From the IMG/VR virus record IMGVR_UViG_2844571421_000002, positions 13,006 to 77,005 of that record: DNA of 64,000 nt; one strand, given 5' to 3'. The notes beneath the pieces were generated by a model, which worked only from the letters and a program-made list of their open reading frames with translations, had not been told where the DNA came from and made no database searches. The position numbers were made by a program, and so were the translations under genes. This document shows, piece after piece, positions 3,784-48,209 of the stretch. Every line of letters begins with the position of its first letter. Position 1 is the stretch's first letter. The stretch is from a virus (lineage: Duplodnaviria > Caudoviricetes).

Positions 3784-3814
3784 GTAAATGCGTGCGACTT
3801 CTGCGGATGGCTCA
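3784..3814 (-). promoter_or_regulatory. 31-bp phage motif upstream of protease/capsid operon
   Basis: TGAGCCATCCGCAGAAGTCGCACGCATTTAC, 8 nt from CATTTA to ATG. Confidence 0.75.
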
Positions 3815-5170
3815 GCCGTCCTTCGTCGCCTCGGCATGCGCTTCCGCCGAGCTGCCCTCAACGGGCGTCGGCGTCTCTCCGGGCTCGTTGGGCTTCTGCC
3901 CCGGCAGCAGCTCCGCGAAGCCTTGCCGCTCCGGGTGAGGCTTGAACCCCGCTTCGACTCGCCACTCGTCGAAGGTGAAGGCGCTCGGGAGCGTCCCCAT
4001 CACCCGCAGCCGGTGCTCACGGTCGGCAGGCACGGGAGAGTCGTAGGAGAGAAGCACGTCGTCTTCGAAGCGGGGCGCCAGGTGCTTTTGCATCGACGCG
4101 AGGAAGACTTCGGCGCGCGGCTTCGTCGCCTGTTCGGCAAGGTGCTCGCGCGCTGCGTAGCTGGTCGCCTTGTTGCTGCTCGTCACGTCGCCCACAATCT
4201 CCGGCGGCACCCGGTAGACCATCCGCACGAAGTCCATGAGGAAGCGGCGCAGGTCGACGAGCTGCATGTCGCGGAAGGGCGTGTCGAGCCGGGCAAACGT
4301 CGTCCGGCCGCTCGTAATCATCACCCGGCCTGCGTTGGCGGGGCCCCCGTACTCACGCGCAAGCGATTCCTTGAAGGCCCTCGCGGGCCCGGCCTGAGAC
4401 TCGTTGAAGCCCTCAATCGCGATGACGGCGCCCGGAAGCATGTTGTTGAAGAAGGCGTTCTTTGTGAAGCGCGCCGCGTGCTCGTCGGTGTCGACCTCGT
4501 CGCCCAGGGCGTATGCGATGCCGATACCGCGGCCGAGTGGGTCAGCCGGGTTCAGACGCTTCACGAAGATGACGCTCGCCGCAGGGAGGAGGAACGTCCG
4601 TCCGCCAGCGGCCACCGTGTAAGTGCGCTCGGACTTCGGCTTGCTCAAATCTGGAAGCGCGAGGACGCAATCGGGCGGCACGGGCCACAGGCCCACGGGC
4701 ACGCCCGCCAGCTCTTCGACGACGGCGAAGAACTCGCCCGTCAGGTCGTAGTGCAGACAGAAGAGCTTCGCGAAGTCGCGGCCCGTCATGTAGTCGTTCG
4801 GGTCCGCCAGCAGCCGCAACAGGGGATGGTCGGGCAGCTCCACCGCGCCCCCCGTCTCGACGAGCGACTTCAACCGCTCCCGGCGAATGTCGCCACAGGC
4901 CCGCCGCAGCGACACGTCGACGAGCGTCTTCCGCGTCGTGGGGTCCTGCCGCGTGAAGGCCCGCCACGTCACGTCCGCGAAGGCATCGCCCACCGTGTCG
5001 ACGATAGTGCCGAGCCACGGCATCTCGGCGTAGGCCGCGAGCAGCGCGGGCACCTCCCGACGCGGCGGGGCCGACGCCCAACGGCTCAGCTCCAGCCCCG
5101 TTCCCTTGCGCTTGCCGCTACCGCGAAGCGCGGCGCGCATCCTGTCCAACATCCCCATGGAGAACCTCAC
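3812..5170 (-). CDS. Portal protein (HK97 family)
   Basis: NPADPLGRGIG, FFNNMLPGAVI, GGPANAG, VYRVPPEIVG motifs; lies between terL and protease. Confidence 0.9.
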   Translation of the reverse strand: MRFSMGMLDRMRAALRGSGKRKGTGLELSRWASAPPRREVPALLAAYAEMPWLGTIVDTVGDAFADVTWRAFTRQDPTTRKTLVDVSLRRACGDIRRERLKSLVETGGAVELPDHPLLRLLADPNDYMTGRDFAKLFCLHYDLTGEFFAVVEELAGVPVGLWPVPPDCVLALPDLSKPKSERTYTVAAGGRTFLLPAASVIFVKRLNPADPLGRGIGIAYALGDEVDTDEHAARFTKNAFFNNMLPGAVIAIEGFNESQAGPARAFKESLAREYGGPANAGRVMITSGRTTFARLDTPFRDMQLVDLRRFLMDFVRMVYRVPPEIVGDVTSSNKATSYAAREHLAEQATKPRAEVFLASMQKHLAPRFEDDVLLSYDSPVPADREHRLRVMGTLPSAFTFDEWRVEAGFKPHPERQGFAELLPGQKPNEPGETPTPVEGSSAEAHAEATKDG

Positions 5171-6582
5171 ACCGCGAAGAACTGTTCGACGAAGACCAGG
5201 TCATGCACGCCCCAGCAGAAGGCGTCGGCCCTGTCATCCCTTCGGCCGTTAATCCCCGTGAATTTGCTGAGCTGCGCTTCCAGCTTCGGGAAGGTGCCGA
5301 CGAACTCGACGCGGCCCGCTTCGGCCAGGGCGGACACCGGCTCGGCACGCTTGCTCTTCGCGCTCGTCGCCCGCACGGGCTTCACGTTGACGCTCACGCC
5401 CATTTCCCCGGCAACGGTGCTGATGAGCGTCTCCACCATCTCCCCGCCCGTGTTCACCTCGACGACGAGCGCGTCACAGGCCCATTCGAGATAGGCCCGA
5501 ATGGCCGTCGTCGCCCACTCGCGGGGACTGGCCCGGCGCGACAGGTCGGCCAGGACCGAAACCCGCTTGAGCGGGACACCGTCGGCCCCGAAGAGCGCGC
5601 TCGACTTGCAGCCTTCGACGATGATGCCCGTTTCGTCCGAGCCAGTTTCGCTCGTTGGGCTTGGGTCCACGCTGACGATGCGCCTGTCGAGCTGCTGCGC
5701 GTACTCGTGCGGGTCGGCGTCGACACGGCCCCACTTCGCCGAGCCAAAGATGGCCCCAGGCACGTCGAAGAGCAGGCGGCCGAGAACCTCTTGCTGCCCC
5801 CAGCGGGTGTTCGCCAGCGCCCGCATGTTCGCCACGGCCGACGGTGCCAGGTTCGCCGCGTTGCTGAGTGAAGAGCCCGTGCGAAGCACCACGCCCGGCT
5901 TGAGTTCCTGCGTCTCCGCGTTCGCGAAGAGCAGTTCTTCAATCTTCTTCAGCGGGCGCGGCGTCCCCGTCAGAAGGAGCTGCGGCGGGTCCTCTCGCGA
6001 GCCGATGCGCAACACGAGCGGGAGCTGATCGACCGCGGCCATGTCGTGTTTCCAGCTCGCAGGCTCGTCGCCCCAGCCCCATCCTGCATTCGGGCCGCGC
6101 AGCCGGTCGGGCTTATCCGCCGAGTAGCAGATGGCATAGACGCCGTTGGGCCACGTCACCCGGCGCTTGCTGGGCTCGTACTTGGGGGTAAACCAGGGGG
6201 GCGACAGGGCGAGGATGCCGGACGCGCCGCGAATCATGGTGTCGCGCACGTCTGCCGCAGTCGGGCCGATGAGGGCTCCGACGCTCTTCGCCTGCCACGC
6301 CTTTTTGATGACCCAACGCGCGCCGCACCACGTCTTCCCGAAGCCGCGCCCGGCCATGACGAAGCACGTCGAGAACTTGTCCGGGGGCGACTGCTCGCGA
6401 CGCGCCCAGAAGTCGAGGTCGTAAACGAGCAGCTCGACTTCCTTGTCGTCGAGCCCACCGAAGAGCTTCGCGAGCTGAGCGCGGGAACCGGCCGTTTGCA
6501 CCATCCGGGATGCGGGGGACTCGTGCGGCGCGAGCCCCTCGGCGAACTTCCCCCATGCGCCCTTCGACAGAAGGCTACGCAT
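5167..6582 (-). CDS. terL: Terminase large subunit
   Basis: Walker A GRGFGKT, Walker B WGWGDE, LLTGTP, nuclease VSVDPS..SDETG..DDRADA. Confidence 0.92.
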   Translation of the reverse strand: MRSLLSKGAWGKFAEGLAPHESPASRMVQTAGSRAQLAKLFGGLDDKEVELLVYDLDFWARREQSPPDKFSTCFVMAGRGFGKTWCGARWVIKKAWQAKSVGALIGPTAADVRDTMIRGASGILALSPPWFTPKYEPSKRRVTWPNGVYAICYSADKPDRLRGPNAGWGWGDEPASWKHDMAAVDQLPLVLRIGSREDPPQLLLTGTPRPLKKIEELLFANAETQELKPGVVLRTGSSLSNAANLAPSAVANMRALANTRWGQQEVLGRLLFDVPGAIFGSAKWGRVDADPHEYAQQLDRRIVSVDPSPTSETGSDETGIIVEGCKSSALFGADGVPLKRVSVLADLSRRASPREWATTAIRAYLEWACDALVVEVNTGGEMVETLISTVAGEMGVSVNVKPVRATSAKSKRAEPVSALAEAGRVEFVGTFPKLEAQLSKFTGINGRRDDRADAFCWGVHDLVFVEQFFAV

Positions 6583-7051
6583 CGCTGGCCCCCTTGTCCT
6601 CGAGTTGCTCGGACGGCGCCGCTTCGGCAGGCGGGGACGCTGGCGGCTCGTCCGGGAGGAACTTCCCCAGCCGGTCAATCAGTAGCTCGCGCAGCGCGGC
6701 AGTGTCGGCGGCCTGGTCCTCGGGGCTCTTCGCCTCGACGTTGTCGCGTCGGCCGTACAGCTCCGGGAAGCGGCGGCTCAAGAGCCACTGGACGTGCTTC
6801 GGGTTCGTCGTCGCGGCGGCCTGGAGAGTCTCTGTCGCCCCCTGCATGAACTCCGCTTCAGCCCGGTTCACCGCGACGAAGAACTCGCGGTAGAGCCCGC
6901 GCGCCTCGCTCGCGCCCCGGTGAAACCAACGGGAAACGGTCTGCTCGTCGACGCCTACGAGGCCCGCAGCCGCTCGACGGAAGAGGCCCGAGCGCAAGTG
7001 CTCGCAGATCTGCTGTTGAAGCTCAGGAGTGAGTTTGGTTGGTCGCGCCAC
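6575..7051 (-). CDS. terS: Terminase small subunit
   Basis: MARPTKLTPE N-terminus, HTH-like segment, WLLSRRFPELYG; overlaps terL start. Confidence 0.72.
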   Translation of the reverse strand: MARPTKLTPELQQQICEHLRSGLFRRAAAGLVGVDEQTVSRWFHRGASEARGLYREFFVAVNRAEAEFMQGATETLQAAATTNPKHVQWLLSRRFPELYGRRDNVEAKSPEDQAADTAALRELLIDRLGKFLPDEPPASPPAEAAPSEQLEDKGASDA

Positions 7052-21561: not shown

Positions 21562-21777
21562 ATGCCTGATAGCAATGAAGGCACTCCCGAGTTCCTGACG
21601 GTCGATGAGGCCGCAGCACTTCTGCGCGTGAACCGAAAGACACTCTACGAGTCGATTCGGCTGGGTCAGGTGCCGGGAGTCGTTCGCATCGGGAAAGCGC
21701 TGCGAATCCGGCATGCCGCGCTGGTAGAGTCCCCCTCCGGGAAGGGCCGCGATTCTGCGCTTTGGAGTCGACGATGA
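21562..21777 (+). CDS. xis: Excisionase (MerR/HTH_17-like)
   Basis: FLTVDEAAALLRVNRKTLYESI..G.VP..RIG; ATGA overlap with int. Confidence 0.85.
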   Translation: MPDSNEGTPEFLTVDEAAALLRVNRKTLYESIRLGQVPGVVRIGKALRIRHAALVESPSGKGRDSALWSRR

Positions 21778-22994
21778 GCGCCAGGTTGCGGAAGTGGACG
21801 ACGAAGGAAGGAAAGTCTGAGGAGGCGTGGCAAGTGGACTTCGTGTTTCAGCATGCGGACGGACGGAAACAGCGAGTCGTGAAGTTCTCGCCCGTCCAGA
21901 CCCGTCGGGGTGCTGAGCAATACGAACGCGAGCTGCGCAGCGCCTTGCTCAACGGGACTTTCGGAAAGGAGCAGTGCGGCGAGGAAAGCCCCATCACGCT
22001 TGCGGACTTCACTCCGCGGCTCCTCACCTACAGCGAGAACAACAACAAGCACTCAAGCGTCGACAGCAAACGACAGATTCTCAGAGACCATATCCTCCCC
22101 TTCTTCGGGAAGGTGGCGCTCGCGAACATCGGCTTGGCCGAAATCGAAGACTTCAAGGCGCACATGCGCAAGAAGAAGTCGGCAGCTCACAAGCGGAAGG
22201 ACTCCGCGTCAAAGCGAGCCATCCGGAAGCGGCAGCGTAGCGAACCCAAGCCCCTGAGTCTGAAGACCATCAACAACGTGCTGACTGTGCTTCACAAGCT
22301 CCTGACGCTCGCAGAAGAGCATGGGGTCATCCGGCAGGCGCCGCGCGTAAAGCCCTTCGGGAAGCTACCGAAGCCTCCCTTCGACTTCCTGAGCTTTGAG
22401 GAAGCGGATCAGCTTCTCGCCGTCGCTGAGCCCGAATGGCGCACGTTGCTGCGCGTCGCCATCAAGACGGGGCTTCGGCAGGGGGAGCTGATCGGGCTCC
22501 AGTGGCACGACCTGACCCTGACGCGGGGCCTGCTTCACGTTCGCAGGACCATTTGGCGCGGGATAGAGGGTTTGCCGAAGGGTGGGCGTGAACGGACGGT
22601 CGACTTGCCCGCCTCCGTGGTTGATGCGCTCAACGGCCACCGGCACCGTCGGGGGCGGTTCGTCTTCTGTCAGGAGGACGGGCAGCCACTCACCAAGGGC
22701 AAGATGGCGGCACCGCTGGGTCGCGCCCTCCGGGCGGCGGGCATCACCCGCGAAGTGGGGCAAATCGGCTGGCACGATCTGCGCCATACCTACGGCAGCC
22801 ATCTCGCGATGAGGGGTGTCCCGCTGAAGGTGATTCAGGAGCTGATGGGGCACGCGACCATCGAGATGACGAATCGCTACGCCCACCTGAGCCCCGACAC
22901 TCGGAGAGAGGCAGTCGCCGTTTTGGACCGGCCTCTCGCTCTGCCGTGCGACATACGTGCAACATGGAAGGAGGCCGCTCCTAACTGCACGTAA
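21774..22994 (+). CDS. int: Tyrosine integrase
   Basis: TGLRQGEL, HDLRH, MGHA, RYAH catalytic residues. Confidence 0.96.
   Translation: MSARLRKWTTKEGKSEEAWQVDFVFQHADGRKQRVVKFSPVQTRRGAEQYERELRSALLNGTFGKEQCGEESPITLADFTPRLLTYSENNNKHSSVDSKRQILRDHILPFFGKVALANIGLAEIEDFKAHMRKKKSAAHKRKDSASKRAIRKRQRSEPKPLSLKTINNVLTVLHKLLTLAEEHGVIRQAPRVKPFGKLPKPPFDFLSFEEADQLLAVAEPEWRTLLRVAIKTGLRQGELIGLQWHDLTLTRGLLHVRRTIWRGIEGLPKGGRERTVDLPASVVDALNGHRHRRGRFVFCQEDGQPLTKGKMAAPLGRALRAAGITREVGQIGWHDLRHTYGSHLAMRGVPLKVIQELMGHATIEMTNRYAHLSPDTRREAVAVLDRPLALPCDIRATWKEAAPNCT
22945..22965 (+). repeat. 11-bp-period direct repeat CGTGC(G/A)ACAT, putative arm-type site inside the int 3' end
   Basis: CGTGCGACAT-A-CGTGCAACAT read directly; arm role inferred. 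Confidence 0.5.
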
Positions 22995-23010
22995 TCATTG
23001 AACAATTCAA

Positions 23011-23096
23011 TGCACGAGCCGGGGATCGAACCCGGACGGCCCTTACGGGCCAGCGGATTTTAAGTCCGCTGCGTCTGCCAGTTCCGCCACTCGTGC
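23011..23096 (-). tRNA. trnL: tRNA-Leu (anticodon UAA); CCA not encoded; att site
   Basis: Acceptor stem GCACGAG/CTCGTGC, anticodon arm GCGGA-CTTAAAA-TCCGC, long variable arm, GGTTCGATCCC T-arm. Confidence 0.97.
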
Positions 23097-23103
23097 CCAG
23101 TGA

Positions 23104-23116
23104 TTTCAGGTGCTTA
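23104..23116 (+). promoter_or_regulatory. IHF-like site next to att/tRNA
   Basis: TTTCAG-GTGC-TTA versus WATCAR-N4-TTR (one mismatch). Confidence 0.4.
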
Positions 23117-23138
23117 CTGGCCCCCCTTGACCCTCTTC

Positions 23139-23186
23139 AGTAGGGAAATAGTAGGAACGAAAGCAGCTTCCTACGATGTCCCTACT
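23139..23186. repeat. Inverted pair of tandem AGTAGG(G/A)A repeats (arm-type sites or hairpin)
   Basis: AGTAGGGAAATAGTAGGAA-10 nt-TTCCTACGATGTCCCTACT (17/19 complementary). Confidence 0.6.
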
Positions 23187-23307
23187 CGCCCCGCCGCGAC
23201 AAAGGGGGCACTTCACTCCCAGTGACAACACCAGACCAGCCGGAGGATCCTGGACCGGCTCCGCGCCACCAGCAAGCCGAAAGCACCTGGGAGGGGAGGT
23301 CCTATGA

Positions 23308-24462
23308 CTAGGCCGTCGTCACGTCATCCGGCTTGCGCTTGCCGCGACCACGAGACGGCATGAGCACCATCGAATCCAGCGCCTCTTCTGCCTGAGCAGC
23401 CCGCGCCTTCAACTCGGTTGCGGCGTCGGACTTCGTGAAGGTGCCGCCAAGCCAGGCGCTCAGGTCGGCCGCCAGCTCCCCCGCCGACTGGTAACGCTCA
23501 CGAGGGGCAACCCGAAGTAGCCGGCTCAGCGTCACGCGTAGCCCCTGGGGAAGCCCCTCGGTCATCGCATCTACGTCCGCGGCCTTCAGGGTCGCCGCAC
23601 GCCAAATCGCGTCGGACACCAACGGCGGCGCCCCAGTGAGCGTGGCCCGCTTGATTGCCCGAGAGACCCGCCGACGCTTCTTCGTGGACAACGAGCCCAT
23701 GACTTCGGGCGTGATGTCGTCGGGGCAAAAGAGCAGGTTCTTCCCCGTCGCCAGTTCGAGCAGCACGACGCCCAGAGTGAAGAGGTCGGAGCGCGCATCG
23801 ACGCTCCCCCCTAGAAGCATCTCCGGTGACGAGTAGAAGTGGTCTCCCAACGGGCCGCGCGCGGATGAAGCGACTCGCCCCGGCAAGTCGGACAACGCGA
23901 GACCGAAGTCGGCGAGCTGAACCGTCCCATCCCAATTGACGAAGATGTGCTCAACGTCGACCGCCCGATGAACGATGTTGAGTGACCGTCCCTGCGCGTC
24001 CTTCGCGGCGTGCGCGTGCTCAAGGGCCGCTGCGACCTGGACACCGACATAGAGCACGAAGAGCGGCGAGAACCATCGCTGACTCTCACCGACGAGCGTC
24101 AGCAGCTCATTCAGGGAGTGGCCGTCCGGGTGCTCCGTGCTGACGTACCAATAGCCCTCGACCTTGTGCAGTCCATGAACCTTGAGGATGGCCGGGTGCT
24201 TGAGGAACGTCGCAAGGCGAACCTGCTCGTCGAGCTTCGCACGCGCACGCATGACCCGGTCGCCTTCCGTTTCCGATGGCGCCGGAACCGCCTTGAGCAG
24301 CACCTTCCCACGCGGCGCGCCGGACGTGGCCCGCAGCCGCGCTACGAACAAGGACATCCCATGGTGAGTCGGCCCCAAGTCCTCGCGGTACTCGTAGCCG
24401 ACCCCGCCCGCCGAGAAGAGGATCGCCCCCCGTGGGATCTTGAACTCGATTGCCTTCGACAT
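23308..24462 (-). CDS. Hanks-type Ser/Thr pseudokinase (cytoplasmic)
   Basis: VLLK, DFG and SPE..DARSDLF present; catalytic loop is HRAVDVEH and no Gly-rich loop; SD GAGGAG before ATG. Confidence 0.85.
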   Translation of the reverse strand: MSKAIEFKIPRGAILFSAGGVGYEYREDLGPTHHGMSLFVARLRATSGAPRGKVLLKAVPAPSETEGDRVMRARAKLDEQVRLATFLKHPAILKVHGLHKVEGYWYVSTEHPDGHSLNELLTLVGESQRWFSPLFVLYVGVQVAAALEHAHAAKDAQGRSLNIVHRAVDVEHIFVNWDGTVQLADFGLALSDLPGRVASSARGPLGDHFYSSPEMLLGGSVDARSDLFTLGVVLLELATGKNLLFCPDDITPEVMGSLSTKKRRRVSRAIKRATLTGAPPLVSDAIWRAATLKAADVDAMTEGLPQGLRVTLSRLLRVAPRERYQSAGELAADLSAWLGGTFTKSDAATELKARAAQAEEALDSMVLMPSRGRGKRKPDDVTTA

Positions 24463-24613
24463 GCCGTTGCTCCTCGTGTGCGAACTCGCAACCAACGCGA
24501 CGAGGAAAACGCTACCTGCGGCATCTGTTCGAGAGAACGCCTTCACAGGTCATGGGGTCGAAATGGCGTGTTCGCCCCGAAATCGTCCCCCTACCTATTA
24601 CGTACCCCAGCGC

Positions 24614-26407
24614 TCAGGGCCAGCGATCCACGACGTAGCCGCCCCCTGAGTTGAACGCCTTCACTCGACCGTCACTGTATCCTTCAGAGTGGGCCTCGAC
24701 GACGAAGCACACGGGGCGCTCATCCTGCCCCGGTAACCTCACTCGGTCGTAGCGGATGACCAGCGCGGGTCCGTCCGAGCGGCCCATTCGGTCAGATAGG
24801 TAATATGCCTTGCCGTAGAAGTGCGTCCCGGGCGGCGCGAACGCATTCTGGACCGAACGAACTCCCTTCGGAACCACCCCCACCACGTCTGCACCAGCAG
24901 TGAACCAAACAACGTCTTCCGGACCATGACGGGCATTGAGGGTGAGGCTGAACGATTGATTTACCTTCCAGCGGAGATCCTCCCGCATCGACTCTTCCGC
25001 ACCAGCCGGGCAAGTGAACGCCTCGGGCCGAATTTGGGCACTGGGGCAACCCGCCGCGAGAGCCGCAACGAGCGTCATCGTCGCGCAGTCGGCAGCTGCG
25101 GCAGCTTTCGTCCTCCCGCGTGACTGGCGTCCTTGGGGTGGGACCTCGGGTGACGGAGTCGTCTTCACGGTTGAACCTTCCTTCGGAGCGGCAGTTACAG
25201 GCCCCGTCAGCAGCACAGGCGGGGGGCTAGGAGGTGACATAGCAGGGGCAGACGACGTGAGCGGCGCCGAATAAGGAGGGCTCGGCGGGCGCGGCGCACC
25301 AGCGATGGTCTGCGACCCGGTCTCCGTGGGTTCCCCTCGGGCGAGCAAGAAGCCCCCGACTGCTACTAGCGAGATGAGAGTAGCCACTCCCGCCATGAGG
25401 CCCCTTCCAGTCCGCACAGGGCCACGCTCAAGGGCATCTGGCGAGTTCGGCACCTCTACGGCAGGGCGCACCGGCTCAGGTGCTTCCGGCTTCCGTTGCT
25501 CGGACGGCGGATGCACCGGGCATAGGAATTCCGCACTCGAATAGGCCAGGAGTTCGCCCAGCTCACGACGTAGAGCCTCTGAGTCGACGGGGCGCTTGGC
25601 CGGGTCACGCGACAGGATGCAATCAACGAGGTCGTTCAGCGCTTCTGGAACACGCACGTTCAACGCACGAGCAGGAGGCGGCTTCATGACGGTGCTGTTG
25701 AGCGTAACTCGCGCTTGAACCTCCGTCGGTCGGGGGTCAGTCAGCAACTCATAGAGCATTGCCCCGACGGCGAAAATCTCGTCCGCAACCTGGAAGGCGT
25801 ACTTCGCTCGCTGTTCGGCCTTGTGCTCCCGGAGCCATGTGAACTGTTCCGGCGCACGAAAGCGGTCAGTTCCCGGCGGCAAGCCCCAATCCGTCAGCTC
25901 TTCAGCCAACGAGTAGCTCGCACAGCTAAAGTCGATAACGACCGGCTCTCCATCGCTCTTCCGAATTAGAACGTTGGACAGCTTCAAATCCCGATGCAGG
26001 ACGCCACGGCCGTGCATGTACGAAAGCGCGGCGGAAACCTTATCGAAGACCTGCAAGACCTCTTGAACCGTGGGGTGTTTACGCTCTGCCCATTCGGCAA
26101 GGGTCCACCCCTCTACGTACTCGAGCGCAAGGTAGACATTCCCCTGTTCGGAGTATCCATACCCACGGTGCTTGACGATGTTCGGATGGTCCAGGAGGAG
26201 GAGTGCCGAAAGCTCCCGAAGCGTCCGCGCGTGAGTCTGCTTGTCGTCCCCACTCGAATCCCGGTGACGCGCCAATTTGAGCGCGCATCTGCGACCGTGC
26301 TTCTCGACGAGGTAGACGACGGCAAACCCTCCGTTTCCAAGCTCCCGAACAACACTCCATCCGTCGATGGTCGTACCAGGGGGCGGAAACAACGGAATGA
26401 CGTTCAT
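24614..26407 (-). CDS. Ser/Thr protein kinase - TM - Pro-rich linker - extracytoplasmic domain
   Basis: LGNGGFAVVY, ALK, HRDLKLSN, DFS, GT..APE; TM LMAGVATLISLVAVGGFLLA. Confidence 0.93.
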   Translation of the reverse strand: MNVIPLFPPPGTTIDGWSVVRELGNGGFAVVYLVEKHGRRCALKLARHRDSSGDDKQTHARTLRELSALLLLDHPNIVKHRGYGYSEQGNVYLALEYVEGWTLAEWAERKHPTVQEVLQVFDKVSAALSYMHGRGVLHRDLKLSNVLIRKSDGEPVVIDFSCASYSLAEELTDWGLPPGTDRFRAPEQFTWLREHKAEQRAKYAFQVADEIFAVGAMLYELLTDPRPTEVQARVTLNSTVMKPPPARALNVRVPEALNDLVDCILSRDPAKRPVDSEALRRELGELLAYSSAEFLCPVHPPSEQRKPEAPEPVRPAVEVPNSPDALERGPVRTGRGLMAGVATLISLVAVGGFLLARGEPTETGSQTIAGAPRPPSPPYSAPLTSSAPAMSPPSPPPVLLTGPVTAAPKEGSTVKTTPSPEVPPQGRQSRGRTKAAAAADCATMTLVAALAAGCPSAQIRPEAFTCPAGAEESMREDLRWKVNQSFSLTLNARHGPEDVVWFTAGADVVGVVPKGVRSVQNAFAPPGTHFYGKAYYLSDRMGRSDGPALVIRYDRVRLPGQDERPVCFVVEAHSEGYSDGRVKAFNSGGGYVVDRWP

Positions 26408-27267
26408 GGAGTTCCCCCGGAAGCAGCCTTTGGCAACCTCACATTGGGAATCGTGAGAGTGCGACCGTCCCCCACCACCTCCAGAGTAAAGACAGGGCTT
26501 GCACTCAACTTTGCTGTCTCGGCAACCACGAGAATTCGGCCGTATCCGCCTGAAGGCATTGCGCCCGAATCAACTGTTACGATGCGCGCCTTTAGCGGCA
26601 GTCCGACGCGTCCAGTCAGCGTGGCTACTCGCGGCACCCAAGGTGGTTGCCCGAGGTTGTTCCGTATCTCCGCATCCACAAGAACCCACCCCTGTCCGCG
26701 ATAGGCCACCGCGGACACTACAGCGAAGCCTTGTGCCGCATCTCCACGTCCCTTGATGAGCGTTGCCGTTACGCCCTCCTTGTCGACATACCCCAGCATC
26801 ACGAAGTCTTCAGGTCTGGGCATTCGCGGTTCGTCAACCGGGCATCCCTCGGCTGTCATCTCGGGGCGCTGAACATTGATCTGAATGTCCACTTCAGCCG
26901 GGTCCGTCACCAGCGAGAAGGCAGCTCGCGTGGGTGCCCTGCCATCCGCGAAGAAGACCCCAACTTCGTAGCGCTCACCTTCGGCAAGGTCTGCCACTGG
27001 CTGAACGATGACCGACCGTTCTCCGGCGTCTAGAACGCGAATCCGCGACTCGTCGAAGGTAAGGGTCTTCCGGTTGATGGGAGCGGGGAACAGGAAGAGC
27101 GTCGGCGTGTCGCGCGCCACTCGGACGACAGGATGTGGATCGGTAGGGCTGTTTGCAACGGACACCGCTCGGTCCCGCTTCGCTCGTTCCGCTTGTTCCG
27201 CCATGGCTGGCGTCGCAGCCCCCCACGCGAGAACTAGTGCAAGGGCCAATCTGACCGGTTGGATCAA
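26404..27267 (-). CDS. DUF2381 (TIGR02268 myxobacterial family) exported protein
   Basis: Signal peptide; TLFLFPAPI, F.DGRAP..AAF.LV..P.EVD.Q..V.R signature; ATGA-coupled to the kinase. Confidence 0.75.
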   Translation of the reverse strand: MIQPVRLALALVLAWGAATPAMAEQAERAKRDRAVSVANSPTDPHPVVRVARDTPTLFLFPAPINRKTLTFDESRIRVLDAGERSVIVQPVADLAEGERYEVGVFFADGRAPTRAAFSLVTDPAEVDIQINVQRPEMTAEGCPVDEPRMPRPEDFVMLGYVDKEGVTATLIKGRGDAAQGFAVVSAVAYRGQGWVLVDAEIRNNLGQPPWVPRVATLTGRVGLPLKARIVTVDSGAMPSGGYGRILVVAETAKLSASPVFTLEVVGDGRTLTIPNVRLPKAASGGTP

Positions 27268-27490
27268 GGGCGCATGACCTCCCAGAGCAGGAAGCTACCA
27301 TCGCGGATACTGGCGCAGTGGGCCTATTTCCTACAGGTCAGCACGCCCCGTGTGGTGAGCGGTCACCCTTGCCCCACTCTTGGCTTGTTGGTCCCGCCTA
27401 GGTATGAAGGCAGCCGGGCGGCTGTGGTGAGTACGTAGTTCACGGCGTCGCGAGGTCCCTGACCGACCGCGCCGCTTCCGCAGCCGCCCA

Positions 27491-27793
27491 CTATCGGTTC
27501 GCAAGCTTCGCAACGGCGAACCCGGCCCCAAGCCCAGCAAGCAGGGCCACGACGGCGACCGTGAAGGACACGTCCCCGGCCTGCTGGCGTAACGACTCGT
27601 TCTCGGCGCGCAGCCGCGCAATCTCCGAAGCGGTTCGAATGCAGCGGCTTTCCGACAGCCAGCAGCCGCCCTCCACCTCTACGGCTGCCGTGCCTCCATC
27701 GGGGAAGAGCTGCGCGCGCTCGACGCTGATGACCTCCGAGCCCGACGCGGGAAGCGCGAGCAGCACAGCCAGCACGAGCGCGCCGAGCTTCAC
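27491..27793 (-). CDS. Exported coiled-coil protein with C-terminal TM (lysis cassette, spanin-like?)
   Basis: Signal peptide, IARLRAENESLRQQ coil, C-terminal hydrophobic helix; last lysis gene. Confidence 0.45.
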   Translation of the reverse strand: MKLGALVLAVLLALPASGSEVISVERAQLFPDGGTAAVEVEGGCWLSESRCIRTASEIARLRAENESLRQQAGDVSFTVAVVALLAGLGAGFAVAKLANR

Positions 27794-28242
27794 TTGTCGC
27801 CCCGGGTGTCGAGCTGTTCCAGCACAGCAATCGCTGCGGCCTTCTCCGCGACCTGCCCAGCGGCAATCGCGCCCGCCAGCTCGGCGCGGGCAATGGCGGC
27901 GCTCCCGAACAGAATCCGCTTGAAGATGGTGAAGCCACCAGCGGCCGTCAGGGCGACTTGCAGCGCGGTCAGCATCAGGGCCAACGAGAACGGAGCCCCC
28001 GCAGCGAGCGCGTTCGCTACCGCTCCGGCGAGGGAGACGCCAAGCACGAGAACGGCGCCGCCCCTGTCGGTATTGAAGAACGGGACGAACCCGCCACCGA
28101 ACCTCCGCAGCAGGTAGACGAGCACCACCACCACCAGGGCGGCGAGTAGCGCGTAGTTCCTACTCGTCACGGCATCGAGAAGAAGGCGCGCGAACTCCTC
28201 GAACTGCTCGGGGTTCGGCCCGACTGCACCAGCGTCAACCAT
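27790..28242 (-). CDS. Multi-TM holin-like protein
   Basis: 3-4 hydrophobic segments; follows endolysin. Confidence 0.5.
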   Translation of the reverse strand: MVDAGAVGPNPEQFEEFARLLLDAVTSRNYALLAALVVVVLVYLLRRFGGGFVPFFNTDRGGAVLVLGVSLAGAVANALAAGAPFSLALMLTALQVALTAAGGFTIFKRILFGSAAIARAELAGAIAAGQVAEKAAAIAVLEQLDTRGDK

Positions 28243-28254
28243 GTTGCCTCCGGG

Positions 28255-28788
28255 TTAGAAGCCCAGCCGCTCCAGTTCGGCCGCGAGCTTCGGGTTTGCT
28301 GCACGCCACTTCGGCGACAGGCGCTCGGCATCGAGGCGAGCCCACACGTCGGCGAGGGAACTCTGTTGGACCAGGGTGCGAAGCGGCGTGAGCTGAAGCG
28401 CGCTCACGTAGCCCGGCCACTGCACATGGGGGGAGTCGCCGAACCTGCCGCCCCAGACGAGCCCCGCCTTCGTGGATTCCTCACCCAGCACGCGGTAAGC
28501 CGACTCGCGCCAATCCGGCTGCACGCCAGGTCGCGGGCTCGCGTCACAAACGAAGTCGAAGGCGAGGCCGTAGTTGTGCGCGGACAAGCCTGCGGATGAT
28601 GCCTTGCCGCCCATGCCCGCGAGGAAAGAGCGCCGCAGCTCAACCTGCTCTTCGAGGCTACGGAAGCCGTAGGTCGCGACATAGCTCGCGCCACGGGCAT
28701 CGCAACGCGCCACGACCTGAAGGGCGACCGACACGAGCGGCAGGTAGACGCGGTCAAGGTCGACCCGCTTGAAGTTGGCTCGGGTCAC
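28255..28788 (-). CDS. Endolysin, M15-family Zn peptidase
   Basis: GFRSLEEQ, SAHNYGLAFD, DSPHVQ; GTG start overlaps upstream TGA. Confidence 0.85.
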   Translation of the reverse strand: MTRANFKRVDLDRVYLPLVSVALQVVARCDARGASYVATYGFRSLEEQVELRRSFLAGMGGKASSAGLSAHNYGLAFDFVCDASPRPGVQPDWRESAYRVLGEESTKAGLVWGGRFGDSPHVQWPGYVSALQLTPLRTLVQQSSLADVWARLDAERLSPKWRAANPKLAAELERLGF

Positions 28789-29072
28789 CGGGAATCCCCC
28801 GACGCGGCCTGGGCCCTGCGAAGAAGCTCCAACTCCACCGTCTGCCGGACCTGAACAGGAAGACCGACGGCAAACTCGTCGCGCCACCGCCGCAAGGCAC
28901 CCAACTCCACCGCGAGGGCGTTGATGCGCTCGTCCTGGCGGGCGACCTTCTCGACGAGCGAGCGGATCTCCCCCACAAGGGACTTCGCGGCCCAGGTGAG
29001 GACACCGACTCCCGCCGTTCCGAGCAGGGAGCCGACTACGAGCTGAATGGACTGGGTCTCTTCTGCGGTCAC
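28785..29072 (-). CDS. Single-TM + coiled-coil lysis-cassette protein (holin/antiholin-like)
   Basis: N-terminal TM, coiled coil; first gene after the phage motif. Confidence 0.5.
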   Translation of the reverse strand: MTAEETQSIQLVVGSLLGTAGVGVLTWAAKSLVGEIRSLVEKVARQDERINALAVELGALRRWRDEFAVGLPVQVRQTVELELLRRAQAASGDSR

Positions 29073-29101
29073 GGCATCACCGGGGATTAGGAGTGCCCCA
29101 G

Positions 29102-29132
29102 GTAAATGCGTGCGACTTCAGAGCGTGGCCCA
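29102..29132 (-). promoter_or_regulatory. 31-bp phage motif upstream of lysis cassette
   Basis: TGGGCCACGCTCTGAAGTCGCACGCATTTAC. Confidence 0.72.
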
Positions 29133-29246
29133 TCGCGCCACAGGTGCGAAGCTCCGCGCCCAGTAACGGAGTCCTGCCCTACTCAACCCACACGACCTGT
29201 GATTAGCTTCCGAGAATAGCAAGGACGCCCCTTCGGCAAGCCCCTG

Positions 29247-30251
29247 ATGCCGCCAATACCCGGAAATCCCATGCCTTCAACATCCGCGATTCTAGAACTC
29301 CAAGAACTGGCGCGCTCCCAAACGAGTGTGACGGATCTGCTTCGGCACGCAAAGGCCGTCGCCTCAAAGCTTGGGCTCGACGAATTCGAGGAATGGATTC
29401 GACATGAGATGAATGGCTATCCAGACGCCATCAAAGTCCCTGAATACCGAACAATATCTTCCAAGTTAATGTCCACAGATCTTATCCAAGGAAGAATCCC
29501 CATCGCACTCAAGGATGATTCCCACCTAGTCGAATATTTCTCAAGAACTTCTCTTGCACACCCCATCAGCCAAATCCTCCATATACTACAAACAACTACC
29601 GGCCCGACATTCGAAAGCGAACTTAGTCCAAAAGAACAGGCAAAACTCCCCGAGGAAGTATCCCATAGGCTTCCACTCGTTCGGCGCTACTCCACCTCAA
29701 GCCTTGCATCAATCCCTGACGCCGTTCGAGACAACGTGCTCGACTGGGCGCTAAGGCTTGAGAAGCAGGGTGTCGCCGGAGAGGGGATGATATTTACACA
29801 GAAGGATCGTCAAATCGCCCAAATGGTTACCATCAACAACTTTGGCTCACTCATTCAAGGCGATCACGCCAATCTCGCCACGGCAAATAACTCACCGGGA
29901 GCAGCAGTGTCGGCAGCATCAGGCGACGCACGGACTCATCAGCGGCTTTTCAAGTCAATCGAAGCAGTCAAGAACAGCGATTCCCAGCTAGGCGAAGCAC
30001 TCACACAACTCGCAAATGCCATCTCCAGCAGCAAGACACTCGCCTCCGAAAAGAAGACCGAAGCCACCGAGCAACTAGCATTTGTAGCCGAGCAATGCGC
30101 TCTCCCGGCGGAGCAGCGCCAACCCAAAACTATCCACAGGCACATTCTTTGGCTATTGCGAGAGACATTGGGCCTTGGCGCTGACGTATTGCAGGTGTGG
30201 ACTACCTTCGGCCCGATGCTCTGTGCGGCACTCAGTGTGTCACTCTCCTGA
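29247..30251 (+). CDS. AbiTii-domain protein, copy 1 (likely start 29271)
   Basis: ILELQELA..SVTDLLRHAKAVASKLGL.EFEEWI..EMNGY...VPEYR. Confidence 0.72.
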   Translation: MPPIPGNPMPSTSAILELQELARSQTSVTDLLRHAKAVASKLGLDEFEEWIRHEMNGYPDAIKVPEYRTISSKLMSTDLIQGRIPIALKDDSHLVEYFSRTSLAHPISQILHILQTTTGPTFESELSPKEQAKLPEEVSHRLPLVRRYSTSSLASIPDAVRDNVLDWALRLEKQGVAGEGMIFTQKDRQIAQMVTINNFGSLIQGDHANLATANNSPGAAVSAASGDARTHQRLFKSIEAVKNSDSQLGEALTQLANAISSSKTLASEKKTEATEQLAFVAEQCALPAEQRQPKTIHRHILWLLRETLGLGADVLQVWTTFGPMLCAALSVSLS

Positions 30252-44941: not shown

Positions 44942-44972
44942 GTAAATGCGTGCGACTTCTGCGGATGGCTCA
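44942..44972 (-). promoter_or_regulatory. 31-bp phage motif upstream of protease
   Basis: Same as 3784-3814; 8 nt to ATG. Confidence 0.75.
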
Positions 44973-46328
44973 GCCGTCCTTCGTCGCCTCGGCATGCGCT
45001 TCCGCCGAGCTGCCTTCAATGGGCGTCGGCGTCTCGCCGGGCTCGTTGGGCTTCTGGCCCGGCAACAGCTCCGCGAAGCCTTGCCGCTCCGGGTGAGGCT
45101 TGAAGCCCGCTTCGACTCGCCACTCGTCGAAGGTGAAGGCGCTCGGGAGCGTGCCCATCACCCGCAGCCGGTGCTCACGGTCGGCAGGCACGGGAGAGTC
45201 GTAGGAGAGAAGCACGTCGTCTTCGAAGCGGGGTGCCAGGTGCTTTTGCATCGACGCGAGGAAGACTTCGGCGCGCGGCTTCGTCGCCTGTTCGGCCAGG
45301 TGCTCACGCGCCGCGTAGCTGGTCGCCTTGTTGCTGCTCGTCACGTCGCCCACAATCTCCGGGGGCACCCGGTACACCATCCGCACGAAGTCCATGAGGA
45401 AGCGGCGGAGGTCGACGAGCTGCATGTCGCGGAAGGGCGTATCCAGCCGGGCAAACGTCGTGCGCCCGCTCGTAATCATCACCCGGCCTGCGTTGGCGGG
45501 GCCCCCGTACTCTCGCGCGAGCGACTCTTTGAAGGCCCTGGCAGGCCCGGCCTGCGCCTCGTTGAAGCCCTCAATCGCGATGACGGCCCCCGGGAGCATG
45601 TTGTTGAAGAAGGCATTCTTCGTGAAGCGCGCCGCGTGCTCGTCGGTGTCGACCTCGTCGCCCAGGGCATAGGCGATGCCGATACCGCGGCCAAGCGGGT
45701 CAGCCGGGTTCAGGCGCTTCACGTAGATGACGCTCGCCGCAGGGAGGAGGAATGTCCGCCCGCCAGCGGCCACGGTGTACGTCCGTTCCGACTTCGGCTT
45801 GCTCAGGTCCGGTAGCGCGAGGACGCAATCGGGCGGCACGGGCCACAGGCCCACCGGGACGCCTGCCAGCTCTTCGACGACGGCGAAGAACTCGCCCGTC
45901 AGGTCGTAGTGAAGACAGAAGAGCTTCGCGAAGTCCCGGCCCGTCATGTAGTCGTTCGGGTCCGCAAGCAGCCGTAACAGGGGATGGTCGGGCAGTTCCA
46001 CCGCGCCCCCCGTCTCGACGAGCGACTTCAGCCTCTCACGGCGCACGTCGCCACAGGCCCGCCGCAGCGACACGTCGACAAGCGTCTTCCGCGTCGCGGG
46101 GTCCTGCCGCGTGAAGGCCCGCCACGTCACGTCCGCGAAGGCATCGCCCACCGTATCGACGATGGTCCCCAGCCACGGCATCTCGGCGTAGGCCGCGAGC
46201 AGCGCGGGCACCTCCCGACGCGGCGGGGCCGAAGCCCAACGGCTCAGCTCCAGCCCCGTTCCCTTGCGCTTGCTGCCCCCGCGAAACGCGGCGCGCATCC
46301 TGTCCAGCATCCCCATGGAGAACCTCAC
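44970..46328 (-). CDS. Portal protein
   Basis: Homolog of 3812-5170. Confidence 0.9.
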   Translation of the reverse strand: MRFSMGMLDRMRAAFRGGSKRKGTGLELSRWASAPPRREVPALLAAYAEMPWLGTIVDTVGDAFADVTWRAFTRQDPATRKTLVDVSLRRACGDVRRERLKSLVETGGAVELPDHPLLRLLADPNDYMTGRDFAKLFCLHYDLTGEFFAVVEELAGVPVGLWPVPPDCVLALPDLSKPKSERTYTVAAGGRTFLLPAASVIYVKRLNPADPLGRGIGIAYALGDEVDTDEHAARFTKNAFFNNMLPGAVIAIEGFNEAQAGPARAFKESLAREYGGPANAGRVMITSGRTTFARLDTPFRDMQLVDLRRFLMDFVRMVYRVPPEIVGDVTSSNKATSYAAREHLAEQATKPRAEVFLASMQKHLAPRFEDDVLLSYDSPVPADREHRLRVMGTLPSAFTFDEWRVEAGFKPHPERQGFAELLPGQKPNEPGETPTPIEGSSAEAHAEATKDG

Positions 46329-47740: not shown

Positions 47741-48209
47741 CGCTGGCCCCCTTGTCCTCGAGCTGCTCGGACGGCGCCGCTTCGGCAGGCGGGGACGCTG
47801 GCGGCTCGTCCGGGAGGAACTTCCCCAGCCGGTCAATCAGTAGCTCGCGCAGCGCGGCAGTGTCGGCGGCCTGGTCCTCGGGGCTCTTCGCCTCGACGTT
47901 GTCGCGTCGCCCGTACAGTTCCGGGAAGCGGCGGCTCAAGAGCCACTGGACGTGCTTGGGGTTCGTCGTCGACGCGGCCTGGAGTGTCTCCGTTGCCCCC
48001 TGCATGAACTCCGCTTCGGCTCGGTTCACCGCGACGAAGAACTCGCGGTAGAGCCCGCGCGCCTCGCTCGCGCCCCGGTGGAACCAACGAGAAACGGTCT
48101 GCTCGTCGACGCCCACGAGGCCCGCCGCCGCTCGACGGAAGAGGCCCGAGCGCAAGTGCTCGCAGATTTGCTGTTGAAGCTCAGGTGTGAGTTTGGTCGG
48201 TCGCGCCAC
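47733..48209 (-). CDS. terS: Terminase small subunit
   Basis: Homolog of 6575-7051; motif at 48215-48245 upstream. Confidence 0.72.
   Translation of the reverse strand: MARPTKLTPELQQQICEHLRSGLFRRAAAGLVGVDEQTVSRWFHRGASEARGLYREFFVAVNRAEAEFMQGATETLQAASTTNPKHVQWLLSRRFPELYGRRDNVEAKSPEDQAADTAALRELLIDRLGKFLPDEPPASPPAEAAPSEQLEDKGASDA

Follow-up and report, generated by a model that had tools for sequence, protein, structure and literature searches.

The Myxococcus gene of a bitopic Hanks-type Ser/Thr kinase carried by a prophage (24614..26407, minus strand, as for all of the features given below, in the window of 64,000 nucleotides, i.e., the whole stretch of DNA that was analysed) is probably a dual-product gene, which would encode both the full-length kinase and a nested prolipoprotein, made as a precursor of 184 residues and maturing to 144 residues. 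On the strength of the sequence features and their conservation, a probability of about 0.7 is given to this reading. The internal start of the short product associates a Shine-Dalgarno (SD) element, a start codon, an open mRNA context, the features of a signal peptide and a lipobox, all of which are present and conserved.

The Kinase Gene and Its Domains

According to the list of open reading frames and the translation, the full-length product starts at the ATG in position 26407 and consists of 597 residues (64.8 kDa). As a member of the MXAN_1234/2177/3183/4841 family of Myxococcus xanthus, it shares about 80% identity with the M. xanthus paralogs of 596–597 residues, which are documented for DK1622 (PMC3986340). 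More than 100 full-length homologs of 570–610 residues occur in the Myxococcaceae and Archangiaceae. The barrel-kinase family, mainly chromosomal and kinase-linked, has 19–40 copies of the barrel domain in each myxobacterial genome. Prophages carry it as well, and the present copy lies in one of them, immediately downstream from the lysis cassette.

The polypeptide chain successively comprises a cytoplasmic protein kinase domain (residues 18–280, 25568..26356; Pfam PF00069, 125.9 bits, E 2.4e-36), a single transmembrane helix TM1 (residues 336–356, 25340..25402), a Pro-rich periplasmic linker (residues 357–408, 25185..25339; 25% Pro) and a C-terminal barrel. TM1 is hydrophobic throughout the homologs and has an insertion energy of ~0 kcal/mol (median +0.3), as approximated over 19 residues. 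The alignments indicate that the linker varies in both length and sequence and keeps its frame constant, a single open frame running across it despite indels in 38/38 fetched homologs. Since the open frame from the kinase to the barrel is conserved in every homolog, the full-length fusion is, as judged from these alignments, certainly under selection.

The Putative Internal Start Site

The SD-like element GAAGGAAGG (25176..25184), read as codons Lys409-Glu410-Gly411 of the kinase, is separated by a spacer of 7 nt (TTCAACC) from an in-frame GTG (25166..25168), which corresponds to codon 414, a distance that falls in the range of 5–10 nt expected between an SD and its start codon. Both elements had been placed at these positions by the first-pass annotation, and the sequence agrees with it, as it does for the basic stretch, the short hydrophobic core and the LAAGC motif with its Cys codon (25048–25046) reported further downstream. 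The same annotation had made its proposal dependent on the conservation of the SD, the start and the Cys at the nucleotide level, and all three are kept in all of the homologs examined. This conservation was assessed on 39 homologous sequences (at least six genera, 45–87% identity), many of which are paralogs from a few genomes, so that the counts given here overstate the number of independent events.

The SD:anti-SD duplex at the internal site amounts to −9.9 kcal/mol in the present gene and ranges from −8.6 to −12.7 kcal/mol in the homologs (39/39). At codon 414, 26 of the 39 sequences have GTG and the other 13 have TTG, and GTC, GTT, GTA or CTG never occur, in genes where GTG represents 42% of the Val codons and TTG 12% of the Leu codons. 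At Glu410, the rare codon GAA (usage 31%) occurs in 37/39 sequences and, at Gly411, the rare codons GGT/GGA (usage 30%) occur in 35/36. Within the alignment, the columns of Val414, Glu410 and Gly411 each come first when ranked among the comparable ones, which number 30, 28 and 32, respectively, and the synonymous difference of the 7-codon window at the internal site is the second-lowest among 464 windows. The constraint acting on codons 410, 411 and 414 exceeds the needs of the amino acids, synonymous codons being excluded. A duplex strength of at least −8 kcal/mol is found in all 39 homologs only at columns 413–415 of the ~580 alignment columns, and start-type codons are found in at least 95% of the homologs at just two columns, Met217, which is devoid of an SD, and 414. 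Depending on the gene, the internal site ranks 1–5 among 22–48 in-frame start-type codons. With respect to the SD, the GTG and the surrounding conservation statistics, the internal site is therefore more than a chance occurrence.

The start codon switched between GTG and TTG at least twice independently (L028 versus the Corallococcus clade), and ATG occupies the internal start in the homolog L059 and in several paralog subfamilies. In distant paralog subfamilies, the amino acids are altered and the SD and GTG/ATG are retained: KEGSTV becomes QEDVSV with a retained SD CAGGAGGAT followed by GTG, the EKGSPSV variant possesses the SD GAGAAAGGAAG followed by GTG, the QKESPPV variant the SD AGAAGGAAAG followed by GTG, and the QQEHPPV variant CAGGAG followed by GTG. 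Most of 27 further fused paralogs from three genomes similarly display an SD and a GTG, ATG or TTG located 25–55 codons ahead of the Cys; among them, some SDs reach −13 kcal/mol and some sequences have their Cys at position 25. An ATG occurring 17 codons downstream in some Corallococcus genes (MPKK...) was discarded as a start, this position varying freely (Met, Leu CTG, Val GTC, Ser, Thr), and it therefore serves as a negative control for the conserved GTG.

The 60-nt mRNA window surrounding the internal GTG has a folding energy of −8.6 kcal/mol versus a gene median of −18.2 kcal/mol (2.7th percentile), and GC3 is at its minimum for the whole gene at codons 381–429 (0.48–0.59 versus 0.775). 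Another nucleotide-conserved island, CCCCTGCTATGTC (25236..25252), is located 72 nt upstream of the internal start, shows the lowest GC3 of the gene (0.475) and includes the ATG of Met390 (25240–25238), which is present in 35/39 homologs and flanked by the rare codons CCT/GCT. No SD was detected at this island by the SD:anti-SD scan of the 39 homologs, no sigma-70 match occurs in it, and the sigma-70 scan of positions 24400–27400 revealed no internal promoter. RNAalifold predicted neither pairs between the two conserved nucleotide islands nor a conserved structure at the internal start; a pairing of an upstream CCTCC with the SD was dropped, since no such pairs were predicted.

Predicted Signal Peptide and Lipobox of the Nested Product

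The nested open reading frame (24614..25168) shares its frame and stop codon with the kinase and would encode a prolipoprotein of 184 residues (19.8 kDa), which reads (M)KTTPSPEVPPQGRQSRGRTKAAAAADCATMTLVAALAAG up to the cleavage site and continues with Cys. The predicted type II signal peptide (residues 414–453, 25049..25168) consists of a basic n-region with a net charge of +3 and an uncharged h-region of 13 residues, CATMTLVAALAAG. In all 39 homologs, the n-region carries a net charge of +2 to +5 and the h-region comprises 10–19 residues (10–14 in 36/39), in keeping with the ~7–22 uncharged residues expected right ahead of a lipobox. The lipobox L-A-A-G-C (residues 450–454, 25046..25060) satisfies the pattern [LVI][ASTVI][GAS]-C and ends with Cys454 (TGC, 25048–25046), the predicted lipidated residue +1. 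Both Gly453 and Cys454 are invariant in the alignments A1 (33 sequences) and A2 (38 sequences, distant and stand-alone members included).

Counted from the GTG, the Cys occupies position 41 in the present protein and positions 37–49 in close homologs, with an unusually long n-region of ~26 residues; it is found at positions 25–30 in several paralog subfamilies and 20–25 in stand-alone relatives. The lipoprotein rule of the PROSITE PS51257 type, a heuristic, locates the Cys ~15–35 residues from the initiator Met, a span exceeded by position 41. The same domain occurs alone in canonical lipoproteins (P0125, P0126, L086 and L089), in which this Cys is preceded by a canonical signal peptide. Cys441, at the start of the h-region, is conserved even in these stand-alone relatives, which is odd for a signal peptide that is discarded. 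The possibility that the hydrophobic segment forms a second transmembrane helix was rejected, since it mostly comprises 10–14 uncharged residues and its insertion energy is unfavourable (+3 to +12 kcal/mol, under the same approximation as for TM1). Too short and too weakly hydrophobic to span a membrane, this segment is therefore without any obvious role in the full-length protein besides that in an exported chain. No entry for the DK1622 paralogs appears in the supplementary data of two articles on M. xanthus membranes and vesicles (PMC4158809, PMC3222651), which is uninformative.

Alternative Explanations for the Conserved Site

The stand-alone lipoprotein relatives make it plausible that the gene originated from a fusion, in which the loss of a stop codon joined an ancestral gene for the kinase to that of a lipoprotein lying downstream. 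The ribosome-binding site, the start and the signal peptide could then persist as relics in a gene of which just the full-length product is of importance, and the hydrophobic segment would be a structural or membrane-peripheral element of this protein. The maintenance of the fused open frame in every homolog is in line with this explanation, and the conserved Cys441 inside the "signal peptide" suggests a role in the mature chain. However, the synonymous sites of such a relic would decay, yet the rare codons of the SD and the start-type codons are kept across genera and diverged paralog subfamilies, close to a linker that is unalignable, and the open, AT3-rich mRNA context is likewise kept. A mere relic is thus considered unlikely.

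Internal SD-like sequences have also been proposed, in a disputed manner, as ribosome pause sites, and the conserved SD-like tract lies ~25–40 codons before the hydrophobic segment, where it could slow the ribosomes ahead of this segment and the barrel, e.g., for timing export or folding, without giving rise to a second protein. A pause needs no start codon, yet the codon located 7 nt downstream is limited to GTG, TTG or ATG throughout the homologs and paralog subfamilies examined, and the invariant lipobox and the positively charged n-region that follow would be left unexplained, all of which makes pausing a quite improbable account of the site. The invariant lipobox would be accounted for, and two products would likewise arise from one gene, if only the full-length protein were translated and signal peptidase II cut it at a lipidated internal lipobox, leaving a kinase stub and a lipoprotein. 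Such a release hardly seems credible with respect to topology: with TM1 oriented N-in, C-out, the segment would enter the membrane N-out, C-in, and its basic residues lie on the wrong side, whereas signal peptidase II acts on a Cys that is located at the outer face and preceded by an N-in helix; the conserved SD and start are, in addition, not explained. It is conceivable in principle that the SD and the start are kept for some other reason than a second protein. The dual-product reading, as already proposed in the first-pass annotation, where a single gene yields the kinase of the inner membrane and also a distinct lipoprotein bearing the same barrel, is upheld in part, on account of the nucleotide-level conservation of the SD, the start and the Cys.

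The VirB10-like Barrel and Its Partner Genes

The mature nested product (residues 454–597, 24617..25048; 144 residues, 15.9 kDa before lipid attachment) corresponds to a predicted β-barrel resembling the C-terminal domain of VirB10. The AlphaFold2 model has a pLDDT >90 across residues 46–184 of the nested product and contains just short helices (residues 55–64 and 105–110 of the nested product), with no two-helix antenna, the projection by which VirB10 lines the pore in the outer membrane, seen in this predicted model, which may miss a rearranged element. With VIA-align, the top 7 matches of the barrel are VirB10-type C-terminal domains (moderate Z of 7.5–5.0, 98–108 residues aligned, rmsd 2.8–3.9), the next one, unrelated, having a Z of 3.5. 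All of the top 10 Foldseek matches are VirB10-type or core-complex chains of type IV secretion systems (T4SS), with E of 4e-3 to 7e-2. The top structural matches correspond to VirB10/TraF/CagY/TrwE/ComB10, and, outside the family, the Atlas cluster that comes closest is TrbI (PF03743, TM 0.49). The C-terminal 184 residues gave no Pfam or NCBIfam match at E up to 0.1, PF03743 included. The VirB10-like domain announced by the first-pass annotation is thus recovered at the level of the fold, from the top 7 VIA-align matches, and not by sequence profiles. Two Cys of the barrel, Cys466 and Cys567, are invariant in the A2 alignment.

The kinase gene occupies the middle of a three-gene module, the order of which is kept in distant relatives. 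The upstream partner (26404..27267), whose stop codon overlaps the kinase start (ATGA), encodes an exported DUF2381/TIGR02268 protein (Pfam PF09544, E 6.4e-58; TIGR02268, E 5.6e-79) and is found upstream of the kinase in essentially all homologous loci. Its model displays a two-domain VirB9-like fold, with VirB9/TraK/DotH/TrwF as the top 7 Foldseek matches (E 5e-9 to 6e-6) and VirB9 (Z 11.1) and TraK (Z 10.4) as the top 2 of VIA-align. The third member, located downstream (23308..24546), encodes a second kinase-like protein of 412 residues (Pkinase, E 3.3e-17). Apart from the VirB9-like and second kinase genes, the neighbourhood consists of phage lysis genes, AbiTii, a tRNA and an integrase, and no other T4SS gene (VirB4, VirB8, VirB11 and the like) occurs nearby.

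Comparison with Known Systems

In-frame internal initiation is responsible for C-terminal isoforms such as ArcB-C, from the sensor kinase gene arcB, CheA-S, IF2-beta, ClpB-79 and SpaO-C/YscQ-C. The present gene resembles the ArcB-C and CheA-S type in that a second ribosome-binding site and start within the open reading frame would give, from one gene, one frame and one stop, a shorter protein with an identical C-terminus, and, as for arcB, the host gene encodes a membrane signalling kinase. It differs from this type in two respects: the short isoform would open with a predicted type II signal peptide and would thus be exported, lipidated and located in another membrane than the long form, and the site is conserved across a multi-genus, multi-paralog family instead of a single gene. 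N-terminal proteoforms have been reviewed (PMC13515050, PMC11005335).

Another resemblance concerns the spanins, since the gene of a lipoprotein, a predicted one in the present case, possesses an SD and a start of its own and is wholly contained in the gene of a bitopic inner-membrane protein. The two products jointly connect the inner and outer membranes, as those of the present gene would. In phage Rz/Rz1, the gene of an outer-membrane lipoprotein, Rz1, is embedded in the +1 frame in that of an inner-membrane protein spanning the periplasm. In contrast to Rz1, which shares no sequence with Rz, the nested lipoprotein uses the same frame and would thereby duplicate a domain of the long protein itself. 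No relation to spanins was found by sequence or fold, and an embedded o-spanin of the Rz/Rz1 type was rejected, the frame being that of the host gene and the host being a kinase with many chromosomal paralogs that is not lysis-linked. Spanins are mentioned in bioRxiv 10.1101/2024.01.23.576932.

The kinase displays the same layout as VirB10/TrbI, i.e., a cytoplasmic N-terminal part, one transmembrane helix, a Pro-rich stalk and a C-terminal barrel, but its barrel is smaller (~135 versus ~190 residues) and its cytoplasmic part is a kinase. As in the VirB7/9/10 core, the adjacent gene models as VirB9-like and a lipoprotein would belong to the set, as VirB7 does; it would be, however, a lipidated barrel, whereas VirB7-type lipoproteins are small peptides.

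The DUF2381-STPK clusters of M. xanthus (MXAN_1233-1235, 2176-2178, 3182-3184 and 4840-4842), which belong to the same gene family and possess the same three-gene module, are reported to be regulated by phase variation, the four near-identical paralogs falling 35–46-fold in the tan phase (PMC3986340), and were flagged in a Tn-seq study (bioRxiv 10.64898/2026.08.28.747804). In both papers, each of these genes stands for a single kinase of unknown role, and no nested start, lipobox or VirB9/VirB10-like folds are described. Neither a kinase module resembling VirB9/VirB10 nor a lipoprotein made from an internal start is described in the literature retrieved by our searches.

Possible Functioning and Significance

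From the ATG 26407, ribosomes would produce the cytoplasmic Hanks kinase with its single transmembrane helix, Pro-rich periplasmic stalk and C-terminal VirB10-type barrel, and those assembling on GAAGGAAGG would start at GTG 25168 and produce, in the same frame, the prolipoprotein of 184 residues. This precursor would be exported by Sec, diacylglycerylated by Lgt on Cys454 and cut by signal peptidase II before Cys454. In M. xanthus lipoproteins, Lys at +2 is typical of inner-membrane and Ala at +7 of matrix lipoproteins (PMC3222651). The nested product would be sorted to the outer membrane, because it exhibits Pro, not Lys, at +2 and Arg, not Ala, at +7. Two forms of one barrel would thus coexist in the cell, the first tethered to the inner-membrane kinase, the second free but lipid-anchored. 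The free barrel may join, or compete with, the barrel of the kinase in an assembly that is located in the periplasm and includes the VirB9-like DUF2381 protein, and its share could set the number of kinase domains coupled to this assembly. The first-pass annotation had similarly suggested mixed rings, in which few subunits would bear a kinase, and a lipid anchor comparable to VirB7, both of which are conjectural. A further and rather doubtful possibility is that the module of DUF2381, kinase and pseudokinase represents a T4SS outer-membrane core (VirB7/9/10) turned into an envelope-spanning signalling device, in which the VirB9-like protein and the tethered and free barrels would co-assemble under the outer membrane and the ratio between the two start sites would set the number of kinase domains per assembly.

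Should the short product exist, then many receptor kinases of myxobacteria, all members of one large family, have been misread as single-product genes. Each gene would additionally give rise to an outer-membrane lipoprotein that matches the sensor domain of its kinase exactly, as a built-in partner or decoy; internal initiation yielding a lipoprotein is a form that we did not find described in the literature searched. Transposon insertions and in-frame deletions in the kinase domain would then spare the lipoprotein, and the published and future phenotypes of these loci would therefore need to be re-read. The association of a nested start with VirB9- and VirB10-like folds also raises the testable question of the reuse of a secretion-system core in signalling.

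Additional Observations on Transcripts and Truncated Genes

In public RNA runs, about a quarter of the sampled words matched, with reads nearly all 95–99% alike, corresponding to cross-mapping paralogs of another strain; they yielded no usable 5′ ends at the internal site, on which they are uninformative. A short Corallococcus open reading frame (P0160, 168 residues) was rejected as a stand-alone gene, since it is the remnant of a kinase gene split by an IS element. Similarly, P0129, P0164 and P0122, considered as stand-alone genes beginning at the internal start or at Met390, belong to contigs that are cut off upstream and reveal just a preference of the gene callers for this start. When a contig end removes the upstream part of the gene, as for P0129/L051 and P0164/L059, the gene callers pick exactly the internal start.

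A probable second initiation site in the kinase reading frame

The kinase gene (24614..26407, minus strand) translates into a polypeptide of 597 residues comprising a Hanks-type kinase domain (residues 18-280, Pfam E 2.4e-36), a single transmembrane helix TM1 (residues 336-356), a variable proline-rich linker and a C-terminal part of ~145 residues that has no Pfam or NCBIfam match. The frame of this full-length fusion of kinase and C-terminal barrel is kept open in all homologs. From its sequence, the gene is predicted to contain a second initiation site in the same frame, which would produce a short protein headed by a signal peptide and a lipobox. On the minus strand, a Shine-Dalgarno-like element (SD), GAAGGAAGG (25184-25176), occurs 7 nt before an in-frame GTG (25168, codon 414), followed by the segment RQSRGRTK-AAAAADCATMTLVAALAAG-C, in which Cys454 is encoded at 25048-25046. 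The coordinates of the SD, the GTG and the Cys codon, taken from the first-pass annotation, proved exact on re-reading of the sequence.

The nucleotide-level conservation of SD and start proposed as a check in that annotation is confirmed by a codon alignment of 39 genes, consisting of the window gene and 38 full-length homologous genes (45-66% identity) from Myxococcus, Corallococcus, Pyxidicoccus, Hyalangium, Archangium, Cystobacter and MAGs. Column 414 is occupied by GTG in 26/39 genes and by TTG in 13/39, and by GTC, GTT, GTA or CTG in none, while GTG accounts for 42% of the Val codons and TTG for 12% of the Leu codons of the aligned genes. The TTG codons have at least two origins (locus L028 and a Corallococcus clade), and ATG occurs at the internal start position in another homolog. 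The two rare codons that form part of the SD are also constrained, Glu410 being GAA in 37/39 homologs (vs a usage of 31%) and Gly411 being GGT or GGA in 35/36 (vs 30%). Upon comparison with other columns of the same alignment, used as a control for shared ancestry, columns 414, 410 and 411 each rank first, the comparison covering 30 columns for Val, 28 for Glu and 32 for Gly, respectively. Start-type codons reach at least 95% at only two columns of the gene, column 414 and Met217, the latter lacking an SD (-3.3 kcal/mol), and columns 413-415 are the only ones gene-wide where the SD:anti-SD duplex is <= -8 kcal/mol in every homolog.

The SD appears to be retained independently of the peptide it encodes. 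Two Pyxidicoccus/Myxococcus genes encode QED/EVSV, yet CAGGAGGA is present at 7 nt, and three distant kinase fusions, with barrels 30-40% identical, read EKGSPSV, QKESPPV and QQEHPPV at the site and carry GAGAAAGGAAG, AGAAGGAAAG and CAGGAG, respectively, each followed by GTG.

Bacterial initiation sites combine an SD and a start codon with open mRNA. The GC3 minimum of the whole gene occurs at codons 381-429 (0.48-0.59 vs 0.775, mean over 39 sequences), and for the 60 nt of mRNA centred on codon 414 the folding energy is -8.6 kcal/mol, vs a gene median of -18.2 (2.7th percentile); no conserved RNA structure is predicted. A second nucleotide-conserved island, CC(T/C)CCTG-N-TATGTC (25236-25252, minus strand), occurs in the region of lowest GC3 of the variable linker and precedes the internal GTG by 72 nt. 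Its ATG (Met390) is found in 35/39 homologs and is surrounded by rare codons. The island has neither an SD nor a sigma-70 match, and distant subfamilies lack it; it may represent an internal promoter or a further start.

Predicted signal peptide and lipobox

Conservation of the lipobox cysteine also holds, Gly453-Cys454 being invariant in 33 full-length homologs and in a 38-sequence alignment with distant and short members added. The n-region preceding it is basic in 39/39 genes (net +2 to +5); in the window gene it is long and places the Cys at position 41 counted from the GTG. The n-region is followed by an uncharged core of 10-14 residues in 36/39 genes and of 19 in the remaining three; this anatomy is that of a signal-peptide core. 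A second transmembrane helix of the full-length protein was considered for this segment and ruled out because its hydrophobicity is too weak for a membrane span, with an insertion energy of +3 to +12 kcal/mol vs ~0 for TM1 (approximate, with scale values from the literature). Cys441 (25085-25087, minus strand), at the start of the core, is conserved in at least 90% of the fused kinases and is shared by P0125 and P0126, two lipoproteins that stand alone; such retention is unusual for a segment meant to be discarded.

Stand-alone relatives and fused paralogs

The same domain is also encoded on its own, in lipoproteins whose signal peptide is short and canonical: P0126 and P0125 (MKKQAPRATLPVCLLIAAVATGC...), the latter with its own upstream non-coding region, and the short ORFs at loci L086 and L089 of complete genomes. 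A domain profile search gave 22 barrel copies in Corallococcus exercitus, 19 in Cystobacter fuscus and 40 in Hyalangium versicolor, most of them at the C-terminus of kinase ORFs of 550-800 aa and a minority in short stand-alone lipoprotein ORFs. Among 27 fused paralogs with linkers that are not alignable, most possess a strong SD with GTG, ATG or TTG located 25-55 codons before the Cys, e.g., GAGAAAGGAAG-N7-GTG/ATG with the Cys at position 25, or CAGAAGGAGG...GTG at -13 kcal/mol. In 15/27 it is one of the three best-ranked in-frame start codons of the gene; since paralogs are not independent, this survey is supporting rather than decisive. In Corallococcus sp. CA054B (L060:2790-3507), a paralog has lost its kinase part to an IS element (DDE transposase); what is left retains the upstream island, SD, GTG and intact barrel ORF, with the second kinase gene after it. 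Its annotation is that of a hypothetical protein of 168 aa starting at a later ATG.

A modelled VirB10-like barrel beside a VirB9-like protein

The AlphaFold2 model of the 184-aa nested product has pLDDT >90 at residues 46-184. With VIA-align, VirB10-type C-terminal domains take all of the first seven places among 48,161 chains, including pKM101 TraF, Xanthomonas VirB10, CagY, TrwE and ComB10 (Z 7.5-5.0, 98-108 residues aligned, rmsd 2.8-3.9), the next match having a Z of 3.5. The best ten Foldseek matches are all chains from T4SS VirB10-type or core-complex entries, and the closest non-family Atlas cluster is TrbI (PF03743). The earlier designation of the domain as VirB10-like therefore stands at the level of fold but not of sequence profile, where no match occurs; with moderate Z and no profile match, the modelled barrel shares a fold likeness with VirB10, not family membership. 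The kinase gene also shares with VirB10 the layout of transmembrane helix, proline-rich stalk and barrel.

Upstream, the DUF2381/TIGR02268 gene (26404-27267, minus strand) is ATGA-coupled to the start of the kinase gene. Its product is modelled as two beta-sandwich domains. The best Foldseek matches, at E 5e-9 to 6e-6, are the VirB9-type proteins F TraK, DotH, Xanthomonas VirB9, TrwF and CagX; VIA-align gives Z of 11.1 and 10.4 over ~200 residues, generic single-domain sandwiches scoring only slightly lower. It is unlikely that a VirB9-like gene adjoins a gene of VirB10 layout by coincidence. The DUF2381/TIGR02268 family is without assigned function.

Possible fate of the short product and alternative explanations

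The short product would be exported, lipidated at Cys454 and cut by signal peptidase II, leaving a predicted mature protein of 144 aa (15.9 kDa). In M. xanthus, +2 Lys marks inner-membrane lipoproteins and +7 Ala matrix lipoproteins (PMC3222651); because the short product has neither, it would probably be sent to the outer membrane. More speculatively, the free barrel could enter an assembly that includes the VirB9-like protein, either joining the barrel tethered to the kinase or competing with it.

Three other explanations deserve attention. Were the segment purely a relic of fusion, synonymous-site constraint should be gone, and a pause element would account for an SD but does not require a start codon. 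If signal peptidase II instead cut the full-length chain, the same cysteine would serve, but the topology after TM1 does not fit. None of them accounts for all the conserved features, but jointly they retain a minor share of the probability, internal initiation being the more probable.

Internal in-frame initiation is well known from ArcB-C, CheA-S, IF2-beta and SpaO-C. The subject is covered in reviews (PMC13515050, PMC11005335). In phage Rz/Rz1, a lipoprotein gene also lies within an inner-membrane protein gene, but in another frame, whereas the kinase gene uses the same frame. In M. xanthus, clusters of DUF2381 and kinase genes are reported to be regulated by phase variation (PMC3986340) and appear in a Tn-seq study (bioRxiv 10.64898/2026.08.28.747804); the nested product is absent from both, and a literature search found no account of it in these kinase genes.

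Genomic setting

The window belongs to a provirus record of 77 kb from a Myxococcus genome, in which the DUF2381 gene, the kinase gene and a second kinase-like gene downstream (23308-24546, minus strand) form a module located between phage lysis genes and a tRNA-Leu adjoining an integrase. At this prophage end (21762-30251), the gene order is AbiTii (29247-30251), M15 endolysin (28255-28887), two small unassigned ORFs, the three-gene module, tRNA-Leu(TAA) (23011-23096) and, on the other strand from the module, the integrase (21762-22994). In three RNA runs from a related strain, the second kinase-like gene shows ~5-20x the read depth of the kinase gene and an abrupt depth boundary near 23631, within it, both unreliable owing to cross-mapping; the reads are 95-99% alike to the window and so derive from paralogs. 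Two pairs of minus-strand ORFs of equal lengths (452 aa and 503 aa), at 3812-6678 and 44970-47836, are ~41 kb apart, which suggests two related prophages in tandem.
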